From the NCBI GenBank assembly GCA_003614675.1, contig ML002213.1:62001-88978 (forward strand): 26,978 nt of DNA, given 5' to 3'. The DNA comes from Dimargaris cristalligena (lineage: Eukaryota). Below are positions 7,600 to 20,424 of this stretch, in pieces. How positions within the stretch are numbered: the first letter of the stretch is position 1; each line of letters begins with the position of its first letter. Both the position numbers and the translations under genes were made by a program. The notes below the pieces were generated by a model, which was not told the origin of the DNA, searched no databases, and saw only the letters and a list, made by a program, of their open reading frames with translations.

Positions 7600-10500
7600 T
7601 TGGGCTTAATTATATTAGTGTAGGTGGTGTGGGTATGCTAGTAAGGAAATAGAGCCGCGTGCGTTATATATTATAGCAGCAATATTGTGTTCGCAAGAAG
7701 TAGCAAGAAATATAACGTAAGCGAGATAAATAGTATTCGAAATAAGGAAGTAAGAAGATAACTGGGGTCTAAAGGGTAGCAGGGAAGGAACCAAGCGTCT
7801 ACTTATATCATCCTGCTCTTATACCCCATACGATGGGTAACATTGAGGGATTAAGACGGTAGATGGATGGGTGCGGGTGTTGTTGTCCTAGGGTGTAGTC
7901 CATGGACTCCCCCGTTCTTCCCGATTGGGAATGTATTGGTGAAACTAGTATATAGAGGGCATCACTGGCACACAGCATTGACTGGCTAGAGCGGGATATT
8001 AAGTTGTCTATCAGCAGATTCACTATTAGGGCCACATTAGCTATAGTACCCTGGGTCTTTGAAACAACACATAGGGATCTACACTACAATAGAAAATTAA
8101 AAGACCTGGGCGATAGAGCTAGCGTAAATCTCAGGTATCCAACAAATCATTGGCTCGGCCGCGGATAATGTGGGTGGGTTGAAAAGGGAATTCTTTCGGG
8201 CATCCCTTCCTGATATGTCACCAAAGCAAATATATTCGGGATAGTTAGAAACACTTTCATTCAATATCAGATATTCCGTTTTTTGAGAGCACATTCCAAA
8301 ATGCCCATTTAGCCAGTGCTGTAGTATGGTAATAGGGCTACGAATGAACCGAACTAACGTGATGGAAATACATGGAACTTCTGAATATAACCCATGATCC
8401 CAGAAATATCCAATAGTTGGAGCTGTGAATTATGTGGTTCGACAGGTATCAAAGGCACACCATTCCACTTACACCAGTTCGGCAACATAAAAGACCAGTA
8501 CATTAGTTCCAATCAGATATACCATTCCGATAGCGCCGGTATTTCTTCCACTTATTTTGATTGCAAATGGAATGGCAGTGGCCTGGTATACTCGAGCTAG
8601 CGAACTTGCTGCTATTGCTTTCCATTCCGCTCTGAGCTGGCCGGGCTTGGTCAAGCTGTGGGTTATTATCACTCTGTATAGATGGACAGGTGTAGATGTG
8701 AGTGAGAAGACGGATATCGGGATCCCTGGTCCAACCTGAGATTATGAGGTTTCACGAACGATCAGCCTACGGCTTAATATGGTATGGCCCTGTCTTACCC
8801 CATCTGGCAATCATTGTTGCGGAGGCTGTAGAAACAAAACAAAATGTTCGTCGGCCAAGTAGATTCCCTAACCAGCCGGGCCATGCACAACCCTGACAAT
8901 ACAAATTGGTTTGGTTGGCCATGGTTCTTACCTTTCGCCCTCTCATTCGCTTTCAGGACCGTGTCCTCCACAGTGACCCAGCCTGGCTATGGGTCAATAA
9001 ACCTGTAAATCAAATAATCCACTAATACGATCGCTATGGCTAGAGGGCAGAGCAGGGTGGTTTTTAAATAATGACGATATAATCACCCTCTGACTTAGTG
9101 TGAATTAGCATACTAAATGACTGTATCAAAAGTGGGAGAACCATATTCAATGTTGGCTGGTGATCCCGTACTTTGAAGGGGATTGTTGGGCTGAACAAGT
9201 ACTGAATCGGGAATGGCCTTGATTCCTGTCTTTTTTTTTAACTGTATACCCGATTGATAAGTCAGAGCAGACCACAGCCACCCCCACCCTTTTATTTAGA
9301 ATGACCAAAAGATGTTGGTATTCAATTGAACAGGTAAATGTGGCCAATTGAGTTGTTTTTGGAAAGGCATGGCTTCAAGCCCCCCCAAAGCGATCATATT
9401 TCAGCTGGTTGTAAAAAGGGTACACAGAGCATCGTCTAATTCACACCCATTCACTCGCTTTACGGCTGTTGCTAAAGGATTTCATTTAAATTTCACAGGA
9501 AAACAGGATTCGATCAATATAAGCAAGGTATCTCGATGAATAAGGAAGCTGGCAATCAACGTGTGACTCTATGGCTATGTTTCCTATTTGGTTCACGTTA
9601 GTAATCGATTGACCGTGGACTCACGAGTCCGAGGAAAGTAGGGTGTAGTCCAATCAAAGGAGCGTGGAGTGATCACACACGGCTTGACTTTCCACCCCCT
9701 ATTTTGGCCAACACTACAGAGTCAGCTGTTGCTTTTGAACGGAACAGGAGAGGACGTCCCTTTCTAGGCTGTGGTTCCCTATCGGCAATGCGATACATAC
9801 CCAAACCCAGACCCAAATGTATCAATTTCCTAGATTGGTGTAATGAAGTTTGGCTAAATTCGGGATGAGCTCGCCAAATACGCGAGGGCGGCAGGTTGGC
9901 GGGGAGGAGGTGGAGGTTGCCAATTCACAGATGGAGTGTATGGTCTCTTATTAGCAGTGACTTACTCGCTCAGAAGGGCAAGAATTGCCACAACACTGGA
10001 ATTCGACTGAGAGGTGGGGCTCTTGGTATATATTTAGAGAAATAAAAAGGGATAAGGGTCCTGGGAACATTTGGAGGGTAGGTAAGACCACGCGGACGCA
10101 GACCAGCCGGCGACTGAAACGCCCATTCAGAATGATTACGCGCCACTCAGTAAGCTAACTTGGGGTAAGCACGGGAAGGGGAGGAAATGCTCGAAAGACG
10201 ACTAGCTAGGGCTACCCTAAACTGTTAAGAACCCCACTATTCAGCGGGGCGACAAATTCGTAATATCCGCCGGTAATATAATGAAGCCGTAGACTTTTAG
10301 GATATATATTCTTTTAATTTGGCTTCGTTTAACCGCAGTCAAGTTACATAACTGAGCCCTCGGCAGTTGCGCTATAGCCCGGGTTTAACTTAATGGCTCT
10401 GCCCCTCCGCTGCCTGACACTTCTGAATCTAACTCACAAGTTTACTAGTTAGATATTACCAACCCCATCAGCAAAGATCGCCAGCTTTCCAATATGGTAG

Positions 10501-10834
10501 GGGAGAAGTGTTCCCCCGTTCCCACACCAAGTAGAGACGCCCTTACATTTTAGGCCACCCAATAAATCACTTCACGGGTAATCTTGACTGTACCCTTAGA
10601 CTTGCTATAGCAGCAATCGATGTCGTTCCATAGAACTACGTTTATAGGAATAGTCCGATCAGCAGAAAAAAAGCACCCCCTCCCGTTGTTCGATGGCACT
10701 AATTGGGTATATATATATATATAACCGGAAAAGAGAAGTAAGAATCAGACGATGAAAAGTCGGGGAGAGTCAGAGGAGAGAGAAAGCGAGAGGGCAGGGC
10801 TAGAAAGGGAGTAAAAAGTACAAAAAAATGAAGA

Positions 10835-12079
10835 TTAGGCCTCGGTTTCCATGGGGGCTACCGAGTCATTGCCCGGCAGGGGCTGACTGGGAGCATCGCT
10901 GGTATCATCACTGTCCAACTGGTCTAGATACGGCTTAACGTCATCACCCTCAATCATCGTGAAGGGCTGGTCCTTTCCCACATAGGCGATGGAGCAGTTG
11001 AGGGTATCCAGCTGCTTATCCTGGGGAAGGGTATCGCGCAGGGCCCGCAAGCCGTGCTTGACCAGTTGGTCCAGGGGGGCATCGACAAACGTGTCGAATT
11101 TCTTTTCCAGGTAAGTCCGAGCGGACTGGGAGCGGGACCCGATGGACATGGCGAAGTATTCCAGGACATTGGCGGAGGGTGAGAATTCGTACAGATGGGG
11201 ACCGGTTTGATCGTACCCAATGACCAGTAGACCCACTCCGTAGGGACGCCGGCCGTACTCCTGGGTGTTAACCTGGGCCTTGTCACTGAGCGCGGAGGCG
11301 ACACGGAAAAGGGGTAACGGGCGATCGTACAGCATTCGGGACTTCATGGCCTCGTTACGCATGAAGTTGCTCAGGACTCGGGCGTCGGAGGTCAACCCGG
11401 CGATGGCAATACCCATGTGTTCGTCAATGTGGAAGATCTTCTTTTGGTAAGACGCCAGTTCACCCGGGGAGCGCTTGACGGCGACGAGGACGGCGAAGTC
11501 GTTGGATCGAAGGCCAACTACGGCGGAACCTTGCTTCACCGCCTCCATGGCATATTCGATTTGGTGGATTCGGCCCTGGGGACTCCAGGTGGAGGCATCG
11601 TTATCGTATTGATTGCGAAACTAGAATAGAGCGCGGTTTAATATGAGGGTCGGCGGGGAAGGGAAGTGTGGGTGTTTTGGAGGAGGGAGGGGGGGGGGAG
11701 AAGTTAGCTAAATCTATGACGCGAGAGAGAGAGGTCCGCAGGCACTTTCATATGACACCGCTACTGCGAAGCCGCCGTTCAGTGATGTGACTTGGTCATT
11801 TGTAAAGAGTAACAGCTAGCACCGGGGGAACTAGACCTGGGTTGTCCCAGCAATCCGGTTGTGGTTACGGTTGTAATGGCGCCGGGGAAAGTGAATCCCC
11901 GGCGTTGAGGAAGGACAAGGCATAGTCCTTTCCTATTCCTAGACAATCCACCGGGGCTGGAATATGGTCTAGAATGAGACCCCTTTTCACGGGATACCTC
12001 GATAGAAGTTCTGGCGAACGCCAACTGGGACTAGGTTGAATCCAGATGACAGTGGGAAGGAGGGGCAGATACTTACCAT
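10835..12079 (-). CDS. PRE5: 20S proteasome subunit alpha-6 / PSMA1 orthologue (262 aa; exons 12079-12077 [ATG only], 11620-10835)
   Basis: The spliced product begins [33 protein letters not shown], the classic alpha-6 N-terminus. Also [10 protein letters not shown] and [14 protein letters not shown]. Donor GCCATG|GTAAGT, branch GCTAAC, acceptor CTAG|TTT. Confidence 0.97.
11710..12045 (-). ncRNA. Candidate structured RNA within PRE5 intron 1 (class unassigned)
   Basis: Seven near-contiguous stem-loops: 12025-12045, 12012-12023, 11976-12000, 11935-11975, 11908-11934, 11880-11904, 11821-11859. G-U pairs in two of them favour the minus (sense) strand. No known family recognised with certainty. 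Confidence 0.5.
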
Positions 12080-12247
12080 GGCGATATGTGACGGGCGGAG
12101 TTATAAACGCAATGGGCTAATATAGGGTTAAAGGTGACAAACAGGTGAAATGTATAGTAATTAACAGAGGAGTGTGTAATGGATGGGACGGAGGTAAGAG
12201 GTCTGGAATGCACTTTGGACTCCAAATTCACATCACAATCTGACTAA

Positions 12248-12256
12248 TACGCCACC
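12248..12256 (-). promoter_or_regulatory. PACE-like (Rpn4-type) proteasome control element GGTGGCGTA
   Basis: GGTGGC core about 170 nt upstream of a proteasome gene ATG. The yeast PACE consensus is GGTGGCAAA. A short motif like this could be chance. Confidence 0.4.
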
Positions 12257-12329
12257 CTGTAAGGCCGTTAATGACTTGGGCGCCCTTTACCTTTTGCTGG
12301 GTCAGATCCGCGTAATAAAGCCCGAATTG

Positions 12330-12340
12330 TACACGTGACT
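12330..12340. promoter_or_regulatory. GTCACGTG E-box (Cbf1/USF-type bHLH site); also at 15431-15441, 20858-20866, 25478-25486
   Basis: The same 8-mer lies 250-520 nt upstream of PRE5, ATP18, NOP9 and RPA49. TACACGTGACT is identical at 12330 and 15431. Confidence 0.55.
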
Positions 12341-13622
12341 ATTTATTTACATCGTCAAATCAGTCTATTTAACTATATATGCCCGGCTCCTTGGCAATTG
12401 GGTAGGTCCTGCATGGTTCTTGGTTGGTGGGATGTGATCCACATGGACTTCAAACATATTCCCCTCGATACGTCTATTTAAGTACTATAAAAACATCGAA
12501 AATGCTACAACAATCTCGATAATATAGAATCAAGTGCGCTCTTATTTCATGCCAGCGGCAGTTTATAGTTTAACAGCAAACCACCTTTTGAAAGTAGCTG
12601 CTGTCATATTTAAGGTTGACATCTCGCTGGATCCCAGACATAGAACTAGCTTAGTCATGTTAATGGGGCGTATATAATCAATAACCGAAAGCGATTGACA
12701 TATTCGGTATTCCACCTTCAGTATTCACCTATTCGTCAATCAGCCTCCCATTTTTACACACCAGCTTCGTAAACGTTTACTAATCACAATGTATATGACA
12801 TATAGTATAGCATGGTTTTCCTAATTAACTTTCTGTAATTTTAAAAATATTCGCCGTTCCTGAAATCATCTTATAAAAGGCCCCTCGTGCCCTCCTTTCA
12901 GACGTCCTCAAGTATATACATGATAGATGTAGGGAAATCTAGTACTCACTAGGGTTACTCCCTACGATGTTTATACTGAGAAATTATATAGGAAACGTGA
13001 AAGATATAACTGTATCAATATAATGGAAGGATATTTATTTACACTGATTATATAATATATTTTTAGTGGTGATCTTTGTCCAAAGGGAAGAATAGCTATG
13101 GCCGAAATCCATACCGTCATACTATTATTGATGTAGGGCCACTGGTAGATTTTTACTCTGCTTTGGCAAAACATTGGCCATTAATAGAGGTCGGGCCTGC
13201 CTTCACAGTATCATTAACATGATCATTATTAAAATTAAATAATAACAAAGAATACTGAAGTGGGAACGGGAATGGGAATGGGGATTTTTAATTGGGCATG
13301 CTATGTGGGCAGCCCAGTGGGTCAGCTCCTGCTCTTCTTAGTGAAAGATAAATCGTTGGCTAACAAGTATTTTCAATGGTCATAAAGGAGTATCCACAAT
13401 AACATTTAGATGACTGATCATCCTGTGGCTGAGTATAGTTTATGCCCCTTGGCAGCCCTTCAACCAGAGGTGTCAGTTACTGACTGGAAGATAGGTGATC
13501 TTCCCATACCTTGGGCATAATCCTCTGACTAGAATGAGGCATCCTCCAGAGCTCTTTGGCTCATTTCCCTGACTAATTGAGTTGAATGACCCATCCCTGT
13601 GACTGAACATGTTAAAAAACCA

Positions 13623-13784
13623 CTATTTGGTAGCTTTAAGCTGGTGGGATGCAGAATGAGCTATTAGATGTGATTTCATTTTGAAAGCTTGAGGGCATTT
13701 GTCACAGATGTGTCTTTGTGCCATGCTGTTGTCACTACTGGAGCTTGGAGTTGCTTCATGGTTAAGCAGAAAATGTATGCTCAT
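13623..13784 (-). pseudogene. Truncated/decayed C2H2 zinc-finger ORF (53 aa to the first stop; frame continues with scattered stops towards ~13290)
   Basis: Hand translation: MSIHFLLNHEATPSSSSDNSMAQRHICDKCPQAFKMKSHLIAHSASHQLKATK*. It contains C-x2-C-x3-F-x5-L-x2-H-x3-H and lies in a CpG-free tract. Too short for the ORF track. Confidence 0.7.
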
Positions 13785-14323
13785 TTTGGGGGTTTATCAG
13801 AGACATGTTGTGCATATATTTATGTGGGCAAGTATGTAAGTGTGTGAGTGAGGTGGTGATGAAGATGGGAAGTTGACTTGAAAATAAGTTACTAGAAAAA
13901 ACATAGTGCTATACCCACTTATATAGTACACAGCTGAGAATAAGCCTCCCCTAACTCTCTGTAGCACAATGCCCTTTGTTTCCATATATGGCTACTAAGC
14001 TGAAAGGCTAAACCAGGTGCAACCTGGTTTATGCACTGCCAAATTTTCATAGACAATATGCATATAAGCCAGGGCCACTTTGTAGTTTTTCTTTGTTAAC
14101 TCAAAGGGGACTTTGAGTTTCTACATAGTAAAATAAAAGTATGGTTCCTCAATGATTGGAACATCTCATTAGCATTTAATCACTAATGATCATTTAGGTA
14201 ATTACCAACACAATTCAGACTATTTGCAGTTGGATAGGGGTGAGACTTACAAAAGATGAACCATGTCTATTTTGTTAGTAGACTATAAAAGAATTGCACA
14301 TGAATTCAACAAGTGAGACCAGT

Positions 14324-14909
14324 TGTCAGCCCTCCTAATCTGATTTAATCCAGATATAATAATCATCCACCCTTATTAGGCCTTATAGCACCATATTAAC
14401 CTTCCCATAGTTACCCCCAGTACTATGAGATCACCCTATATCACATAACCCTTCCCCTTTTGGACTCTAGCTCTTTACACTAATTACTCAGCATGCTAAT
14501 CTGAGGACACTTCTGGTTACCCTAAGAGTCTTCTGGATACTAGTGGCTGTCCGGTTGGCCTATGTTCCTTATATACCTTAGTTACCCATAGTCTCCCCTT
14601 AGGACCTCCTGCTGGAGCTGTCCCTATTTATATAAACCCAGGCCCCATTGGGACTGGTTAGATTCTTGAGCTTATCCTTACCCCCTAGTTTACCTCAATA
14701 AACTTAATATAAACTCACTCCTTCATACTGACCAGTAAGTGTACCTGCTGTAGATCCCTTACATACCTGATTGCCTAAGCCTTTATTGGTTAATACTGTG
14801 CCCTATACCTGACACTAGTAGCCCACTTAGCTGAGTCTAAGCCCCACCTACCATTAGAAGCCTATCCCCGAGACTCTTGATAGACTAAGAGAAGTTAACT
14901 TGGGTGACA
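14324..14909 (+). mobile_element. Solo LTR of an LTR retrotransposon (586 bp)
   Basis: Inverted termini TGTCA...TGACA and an exact 5-bp TSD CCAGT (14319-14323, 14910-14914). Internal TATATAAA (14629-14636) and AATAAA (14697-14702) suggest + orientation. Only 2 CpG seen. Confidence 0.9.
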
Positions 14910-15953
14910 CCAGTTATTTTGTATAGTGTGAATAACCTATTGATGAATTTATAAAAATCCAGATAGGGATGTTTATAAAGGATGGATAATGAGAGTGTTA
15001 ATAGATTAAATTACACTATGGACTGTAGAAAATAGTATAATCAAGGAGATAGTTCCATCCACTTAATAATGAAGATAATTCTGTGAGATATCAAAGAAGG
15101 TTGCCTAGCATGATGATAATGATGTAAATAATAACTACAATGCCAAGGAATGGTAACCAAAATGTAGATATAGTAAAGGTGACCCTAAAAGCAATCGATA
15201 TTACAATGGCCAATGCCCGTACTAGAAGGGCCATGTAATATGTTACAGTATCAAACAAAAAAATACATGGGCCATAATGGCCATTTAATAGGGATCATGG
15301 TATGGTACGGTAGTGATGTATAATGTCAGTATAGAACTACCACCATTTACTTGTGGGGGCTCTTTCGAAATGCCAGTCCCTATAATCTTGACCCAGCCAT
15401 AATCCCCCTGGCTGTGAGGGACACTATTGATACACGTGACTCTAGGATTTAGGAGAGTTTGGTTGGTTGGTGAGGTGGTTCTTTATTTTAAGTTGGGGTA
15501 GAAATCTATTTCCCACTTCCCTTTGGCTTCACTGCGTAATCTTTGAACATGGTCTCCCCAATAGTGAAAATGCTGCATTTTGGCCCTAACTATGCGGGCC
15601 AAAAGGATAGTAGAAAGAGATACGGGAGAGTCGGCTATTTGGCCCTCCCACCCCTCCTCCCTCCGTCTCCATACTGATGGGGTTTCGAAATAGCCCGAAT
15701 AGGCGCCGTCTGGGCCCAGAGAACCTCATGGGGTAGGAGGGATAGGGTTGAATCTCACTTTCTGAAAGAGCTCTCCCCATTACGCTGTAAGACTTGCTGT
15801 GTAGTAAGGTTATACTCTCAACGTGAATCCTCTCACTCCCTCCACCACCTTGTTAGATTATATCCCTCCTTCCTTCCACTTGCTGTGAATTCACTTGTTC
15901 CCTTTACTTCTTCTCCCCCTTTCTTCTTCACTCCAATTAACTACTCCATCGCA

Positions 15954-20000: not shown

Positions 20001-20424
20001 CATTGTTCTCGAGAACCTCTTCGATGCCCTCCAGGTATTGGGCAATGGATGTGTCCGGACTGCCGAAATTGGGCAGTTCGGGTAGATTGGTGGCGTAGAG
20101 TGGTTCTTCCTCGTAGGACTGCCGACCGAATTTATCGCGGTTGGCCCGGGAAAAGGCATTGCGAACTTTGGCTGGCTTAGCAGGGGCGGCGGCTTCGTGG
20201 TGCCAGTCGACGGTTTGGTGATGTTGATGTTTTTGGCCCTGGTCCTGCTGCTGCTGGTAGTCCTGGTGCTGGTAGTGGTGGTCCTGGTCCTGGTCGTGGT
20301 GGTGCTGGTGCTGGTGTTGGGTCTGGTCCTGCTGCTGGTCATAGGCTTCCTCGGTCTTCTTGGAAGTTTCCTCGGAGTCATTCTTGGCTCCCTTCCCGCG
20401 ACGGCGCCGGCGTGCAAGGCCCAT
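17009..20424 (-). CDS. NOP9: Nucleolar Pumilio-repeat protein Nop9 (about 907 aa; exons 20424-18160, 17966-17886, 17648-17496, 17233-17009)
   Basis: PUF-like repeats with Nop9 signatures (DPVASRILQK, HPFASHVCQTL, DPVGSHVFE, HPSANFVVQ, GSFIVDKCW). Three phase-0 AAG|GTAAG...CTAG introns keep the frame through a charged tail (DEIDDLF, VLDAISATKRKR). Confidence 0.93.
20230..20340 (-). repeat. Gln/His/Asp-rich coding repeat (CAG/CAC/GAC) in the NOP9 N-terminus
   Basis: Encodes DQQQDQTQHQHQHHHDQDQDHHYQHQDYQQQQDQGQKHQHH. Confidence 0.85.

Follow-up and report, generated by a model that had tools for sequence, protein, structure and literature searches.

The first intron of the proteasome gene PRE5 of Dimargaris cristalligena contains a hairpin-rich block of 236 nt, which we regard, with about even confidence, as a non-genic, palindrome-rich and lineage-specific intron filler that folds incidentally, and not as an RNA gene or a dedicated regulator. 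Ordinary intron sequence is the most likely reading because the block is strand-symmetric, belongs to no known family and is matched by several nearby spots that are as unusual. The original prediction had seen in it an intron-hosted non-coding RNA or a cis-acting splicing regulator; a functional reading of the block gained no support from the tests that were run.

All positions refer to the window, that is, the whole stretch of 26,978 nucleotides that was analysed (contig ML002213.1, positions 62,001 to 88,978). The PRE5 (alpha-6) gene is found on its minus strand with an ATG exon, a 456-nt intron and a second exon, and its neighbours in the window include NOP9, THG1, RPA49 and ATP18. The parts of the gene are the following:

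12079-12077, minus strand: ATG-only first coding exon of PRE5 (sequence CGCC ATG, followed at once by GTAAGT)
12076-11621, minus strand: intron 1 of PRE5, 456 nt, phase 0, directly after the ATG
12076-12071, minus strand: 5' splice site GTAAGT, the same hexamer as in the four homology-supported control introns
11708-11703, minus strand: branch-point motif GCTAAC with the branch A at 11704, a motif shared with introns 1 and 2 of THG1 and the intron of RPA49
11702-11621, minus strand: C-rich intron tail, the first AG of which belongs to the 3' splice site TAG (11623-11621); 83 nt from the branch A to the 3' end
11620-10835, minus strand: exon 2 of PRE5, 261 codons plus stop (P0001), with a stop-free translation

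The protein of exon 2 matches the Pfam families Proteasome (1.5e-49) and Proteasome_A_N (1.9e-12), and its best PDB match is mammalian PSMA1 (339 bits), followed by S. cerevisiae PRE5 (271 bits). Because a TAG stands in frame directly 5' of exon 2, the start codon must be located upstream of intron 1, and when the intron is retained the reading from the ATG ends at a stop after 30 codons. Together, these two stops require the 456-nt intron behind an ATG-only exon; the same gene structure had been put forward in the original prediction and is confirmed by the splice signals and the Pfam matches of exon 2. Small open reading frames within the intron are limited to two ATG frames of 30 codons, one of which is the read-through from the start codon itself. 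Upstream of the gene, a region of about 3.5 kb (12100-15650) contains no stop-free frame of at least 90 codons and is low in G+C (0.37-0.45). It includes a very high-copy dispersed repeat (14141-14941) with many divergent copies, joints and loose ends. In each of the three sequencing runs its summed contig depth amounts to approximately 10,000-100,000, compared to 8-210 for the flanking sequence.

Four control introns of the window, set by Pfam domain breaks plus splice motifs, are supported by homology. They measure 130-204 nt and all start with GTAAGT, which bears out the claim that intron 1, with its 456 nt, is far longer than the other introns of the window. The THG1 and RPA49 introns have an AG-free tail of about 50 nt. 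A shared architecture is visible in the introns at 22045-21842, 21755-21555, 24060-23859 and 12076-11621, consisting of GTAAGT, GCTAAC and an unusually long, pyrimidine-rich and AG-free tail (approximately 50-83 nt). The spacer that separates the 5' splice site from the branch point measures 368 nt in PRE5 intron 1, 144 nt in THG1 intron 2 and approximately 147-150 nt in THG1 intron 1 and the RPA49 intron. Compared with these introns, the PRE5 spacer is longer by about the size of the 236-nt hairpin block, and the block accounts for the additional length.

Among metagenome contigs, 80 PSMA1/PRE5 loci were kept from 145 relatives, and the upstream DNA was read in 20 of these. An acceptor AG directly precedes codon 2 in nine of the 20 loci (six show a visible ATG with GT directly behind it), the ATG is fused directly to codon 2 in ten, many of which resemble transcript contigs, and one locus has an intron elsewhere. 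Same-position introns of the relatives are short (about 69-125 nt; for example about 84, 125 and 69 nt), unrelated in sequence to PRE5 intron 1 and without the block. The nearest relatives of PRE5 in these contigs share 65-82% protein identity, which is too distant for aligning introns. A phase-0 intron right after the PSMA1/PRE5 ATG recurs in distant eukaryotic contigs (L079, L073-L075, L069 and L055), and this recurrence suggests that the position of the intron is ancient.

The block, its hairpins and the 3' part of the span described in the original prediction are located as follows:

11815-12050, minus strand: hairpin-rich core block, 236 nt, characterized by its fold z-score, five local hairpins and a single copy by depth
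12024-12045, minus strand: H0, CTGGATT/AGTCCCAG, weak, -3.3 kcal/mol sense and -3.2 antisense
12012-12023, minus strand: H1, TGGC-GTTC-GCCA, -4.2 kcal/mol on both strands
11976-12000, minus strand: H3, GAGGTATCCC/GGGGTCTC, -7.0 kcal/mol sense and -3.5 antisense
11935-11975, minus strand: H4, ATTCTAGAC/GTCTAGGAAT with an inner stem, -13.0 kcal/mol sense and -9.8 antisense
11907-11934, minus strand: H5, AGGAAAGGAC/GTCCTTCCT, -11.1 kcal/mol sense and -10.8 antisense
11880-11904, minus strand: H6, CGCCGGGGA/TCCCCGGCG, a perfect palindrome of 9 bp around a 7-nt loop, -19.0 kcal/mol sense and -18.1 antisense
11821-11859, minus strand: H7, ACCGG..CTGGG/CCCAG..CCGGT, -12.5 kcal/mol sense and -13.5 antisense
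11710-11816, minus strand: 3' part of the originally described span, including the proposed pseudoknot; its segment 11775-11816 folds at -1.8 kcal/mol
11732-11773, minus strand: local hairpin in this 3' part, -15.0 kcal/mol

All seven hairpins that had been named from the sequence were found at their places, the perfect 9-bp CGCCGGGGA/TCCCCGGCG included, and all core hairpins sit downstream of the 5' splice site and upstream of the branch point. The arms of H6 are 100% complementary; in 41 of 400 shuffles the best hairpin is at least as stable. The possible pseudoknot further 3' (GCTGTT/AACGGC crossing ATGAC/GTCAT) was not confirmed, the fold of its segment being very weak.

On the sense strand the core reaches -87.6 kcal/mol, compared to -69.3 ± 4.3 in dinucleotide shuffles (z = -4.29, none of 200 as good), and on the antisense strand it reaches a z-score of -2.63 with 3 of 200 shuffles as good. 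For the span 11710-12045 the sense z-score is -2.50 (2 of 100), and the intron as a whole yields -1.01 (15 of 100, with coordinates shifted by one base) and -1.53 for the sense strand and +0.17 for the antisense strand (55 of 100). The earlier picture of a dense structure filling 11710-12045 thus stands for the core, but fades over the full span and the whole intron. With a threshold of -9 kcal, the sense core has five local hairpins that do not overlap, compared to 2.72 ± 0.71 in shuffles, and the hairpin energy sum is -67.9 kcal against -37.1 ± 9.3. As each of these values is reached in a single shuffle out of 400, the hairpin richness is real in comparison to composition-matched chance.

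A look-elsewhere scan was performed with 1338 sliding windows of 236 nt on both strands, 30 of which were set aside since they cover an inverted repeat at 2313-2596. The arms of this repeat (2339-2456 and 2479-2596) are 118 nt long, 91% complementary and separated by a 22-nt spacer. In appearance the repeat is foldback-like or MITE-like; no other fold of the window comes near its stability (-139.5 kcal/mol for 236 nt), and it dominates the scan. Outside this repeat the core is the best composition-corrected window, at -3.08 sd (n = 1308). Re-testing of the 36 best windows with 60 shuffles each yields z-scores of -4.14 (20001-20236, plus strand), -3.70 (10881-11116, plus strand) and -3.49 (two windows), and two PRE5 sense windows in the same re-test score -3.82 and -3.51. 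The window at 10881-11116 is the antisense of PRE5 coding sequence. Five or more local hairpins are found in 25 of 1337 windows on the minus strand and in 40 of 1337 on the plus strand. The PRE5 block is therefore positioned at the top of the local folding background, not outside it.

Differences between the two strands of the block are small. The antisense core shows the same five local hairpins with an energy sum of -71.8 kcal (reached by none of 400 shuffles), and the individual hairpins have nearly the same energy on either strand (H3 and H4 are more stable on the sense strand, H7 and the 3' segment on the antisense strand). According to the original prediction the G-U pairs work on the transcribed strand only. 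This was not confirmed: they account for 6 of the 74 pairs in the minimum free energy (MFE) structure of the sense core and for 10 of 70 in that of the antisense core, and mirroring the MFE structure onto the other strand costs about equal energy (from -87.6 to -64.9 kcal for the sense and from -92.5 to -63.3 kcal for the antisense structure). Because the antisense strand is as hairpin-rich and there is no G-U asymmetry, the hairpins are best described as DNA palindromes, that is, short inverted repeats that are alike on both strands.

Fungal snoRNAs are often hosted in introns of highly expressed housekeeping genes, and PRE5 would be a comparable host. Considering also that the block is a compact multi-hairpin domain with a low z-score and occurs in a single copy, one may think of a stable non-coding RNA of a new family that is released from the excised intron. 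We nonetheless consider this very unlikely, given the symmetry of the strands, a core z-score inside the range of the local background and the outcome of the family searches. Rfam 15 (RNase P/MRP, SRP, U3, snR30, snRNAs, the TPP riboswitch and others) returns no match at gathering score over the whole window, and this covariance check agrees with the earlier statement that the element could not be matched to these families. At E<=10, a search of 11400-12300 gives no match inside the intron; the sole match in this region lies in exon 2, covers 21 nt and belongs to the model of a viral pseudoknot (17.4 bits against 35).

Specific snoRNA classes were rejected as well. For box C/D, a search tolerating one mismatch detects no C box (RUGAUGA) on the sense strand, where CTGA occurs once; on the antisense strand a single C-like site is seen and CTGA is absent. 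No terminal stem with a D box is present in the intron block. For box H/ACA, inspection of motifs and layout reveals no hairpin-hinge-hairpin-ACA arrangement, and the stretch from H6 to H7 lacks ANANNA. Sites of this motif at intron positions 140/145 fall between H4 and H5, H5 and H6 are plain stems without internal loops of the size of a pseudouridylation pocket, and the nearest ACA past H7 is 18 nt away from the stem. A tRNA or SINE origin was discarded as ARAGORN found none. Literature on a PRE5 intron with a snoRNA, judged by title and abstract, yielded nothing on the subject. Like intron-encoded snoRNAs of both classes, the block is a structured segment in the intron of a housekeeping gene, but it is without the C box, the D-box terminal stem, the H/ACA layout and an Rfam match.

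Another explanation is a selected cis-acting structure, in which the stem-loops compact or insulate the long spacer and splicing of this essential gene becomes efficient or tuned. Such a role is conceivable, though we hold it to be doubtful. It would agree with a core that folds better than its shuffles and with the location of every hairpin after the 5' splice site but before the branch point. A precedent is provided by the long introns of S. cerevisiae, which often carry such structures: zipper stems were assigned with high confidence to 32 of 88, and other stable structures characterize a further class (PMC12350175). The zipper-stem definition in that paper comprises a total linker of 42-85 nt and excludes pairing near the splice signals. 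After the same source, pairing was forbidden within 10 nt of the 5' splice site and 20 nt of the branch motif in our path test. The constrained path connecting the 5' splice site with the branch point is 48 for the MFE structure and 50.5 as the mean of 200 sampled structures, against 48.2 ± 8.1 and 47.9 ± 6.8 in 100 shuffles, of which 54 and 72, respectively, are at least as short; the predicted effective distance is thus equal to that of shuffles and speaks against the proposed role. An unconstrained native path of 6 was disregarded, for it results from a sterically implausible 5-bp helix that abuts both splice signals. Also against this role are the missing strand asymmetry and the z-scores above zero in three of the four control introns (+0.46 to +1.81).

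The geometry of the stems leads to a similar outcome. A long-range stem (11984-11978/11736-11730) leaves linkers of approximately 86 and 21 nt, in total about 107 nt, and the closing stem of the core fold leaves approximately 23 and 122 nt, in total about 145 nt; both were rejected as zipper stems under the 42-85-nt rule. Zipper stems and structured long introns in S. cerevisiae (Rangan et al. 2025, PMC12350175; Rogic et al. 2008, PMC2536676) have helices that are poorly conserved in sequence. The PRE5 block differs from them in that no single stem has such linkers and the predicted compaction is no better than in shuffles, in being a predicted structure, and in its host, the proteasome gene of a different fungus.

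The fourth control, THG1 intron 2 (21755-21555, minus strand, 201 nt), shows a different picture with a z-score of -4.07 (none of 200 shuffles as good) and one extended stem (21734/21638), and its presence in the same window is in favour of a cis-acting structure in PRE5. This stem starts 15-21 nt away from the 5' splice site; its end is 26-30 nt away from the branch point, and these predicted linkers agree with zipper-stem geometry as published. In the MFE structure of this intron, positions 15-19 form pairs with the 5' splice site itself. The zipper-like stem suggests that intron structure may be in use in this organism, and splicing may be assisted by structure there; the PRE5 block is without such simple geometry.

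Sequencing depth shows that, at a likeness of at least 85%, the block is present once. Over 11738-12271 the depth equals that of the flanks (15.3 in run X1, 170.5-172.5 in X5), and the only depth step in run X3 is a contig junction at 11689-11718. Intron depth is the same as flank depth in all three DNA runs at a likeness of at least 85%, and blastn within the window finds no second copy of the block. The many dispersed copies that, according to the original prediction, would point to a repeat are ruled out at this likeness. Being single-copy, the block is not a young repeat.

This bears on the idea of a decayed mobile or introner-like element lodged in intron 1, which we judge highly improbable. 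Introner-like elements of fungi (PMC3609843) resemble the PRE5 intron in being longer than regular introns and in having a stable predicted structure, and the size of the block corresponds to the excess in intron length. These elements, however, occur in hundreds of near-identical copies, whereas the PRE5 block is single-copy and its intron position is common to distant eukaryotes and probably ancient. Moreover, terminal inverted repeats are absent from the block, as is a target duplication beyond 7-8 nt. An introner-like element or MITE with many similar genomic copies was rejected on the basis of the depth at a likeness of at least 85% and the lack of a second copy in the window. A tandem-duplication origin was also dismissed: TRF found none, and three units of approximately 60-70 nt share only a CCGGGG core.

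Compared with the window, strain X5, sequenced in another study, has 28 substitutions and 8 gap letters in the 6203 nt of 8000-14202. Two of the substitutions (11819 and 12016) fall within the 456-nt intron, which equals the regional average density, and a poly-C run (sense; poly-G on the plus strand) at 11688-11698 is 1 nt shorter in X5, at 11689. This homopolymer also coincides with the place where a contig of run X3 breaks. Of the two substitutions, that at 12016 affects the loop of H1 and that at 11819 a weak terminal helix of the MFE structure, just beyond H7; with both changes the core folds at -84.6 kcal/mol. Both substitutions miss the seven named stems, and two events show neither constraint nor its absence.

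A further property of the block is a cluster of four CCCCGGYG copies within 137 nt (11820-11956):

11820-11827, minus strand: CCCCGGYG
11880-11887, minus strand: CCCCGGYG, an arm of H6
11897-11904, plus strand: CCCCGGYG, an arm of H6
11949-11956, minus strand: CCCCGGYG

The window contains 8 copies against 1.64 ± 1.29 expected (none of 100 shuffles reaches 8), so that four of the eight are located in this cluster. In a post-hoc test of the core, none of 2000 shuffles reaches four copies. One could therefore picture a DNA-level intronic module, in which the palindromes and the CCCCGGYG/CRCCGGGG copies are transcription-factor sites of an enhancer in a 5'-proximal intron. The strand symmetry of the palindromes would suit such a module, and CCGGGG would agree with C2H2 sites of the SYGGRG type. 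We think it improbable, as the motif was picked post hoc, a motif-agnostic test of the most frequent 6-mer on both strands gives only 24 of 500, two of the four copies are the arms of one palindrome, and the units have no tandem similarity beyond the core. PACE, the yeast Rpn4 motif, gives no support either: a PACE-like Rpn4 site was rejected because near the gene there is only a one-mismatch match (12133-12141) and the 11 matches in the window are at chance level (7.3 ± 2.7). The cluster leaves room for a group of DNA-level binding sites or for competing RNA pairings and establishes neither.

Under the preferred reading of the block as intron filler, a palindrome-rich stretch of approximately 230 nt would lie inside an old, position-conserved PRE5 intron. 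Its inverted repeats would have arisen by insertion or by local mutation of the template-switch type, its folding would be incidental, and the intron would be removed via the usual GTAAGT, GCTAAC and first-AG signals. Template switching is a documented route to perfect hairpins (PMC8794818). Hairpins of this kind (PMC8794818 and PMC13100816) are, like the block, perfect or near-perfect short inverted repeats that are non-coding and strand-symmetric; for the block we infer this origin, as we do the absence of a selected function. Several findings count against the filler reading: the core beats its shuffles and is the best composition-corrected window outside the inverted repeat, the CCCCGGYG copies are clustered, the X5 changes fall outside the stems, and THG1 intron 2 has a stem with zipper geometry.

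It seems to us very improbable that the block is instead a functional RNA domain specific to the lineage, representing either a new family of stable non-coding RNA derived from the intron or a platform of several hairpins by which PRE5 splicing is tuned. For the latter variant, three CCCCGGYG copies would vie with one another for pairing with the single CGCCGGGG strand, and if this were true the platform could link the supply of a proteasome subunit to an RNA-binding factor.

As found, PRE5 intron 1 is one more long fungal intron with a locally stable predicted structure, which in itself matters little. Its value is mainly one of calibration: an eye-catching run of hairpins with a z-score of about -4 is matched by other windows, coding sequence included, within the same 27 kb, and has the same strength on the strand that is not transcribed. 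Should the minority reading hold, the block would represent a new intron-hosted RNA in a proteasome gene or a case of structure-assisted splicing outside Saccharomyces, and with the zipper-like stem of THG1 this species would then be a sensible choice for asking how general such splicing is.
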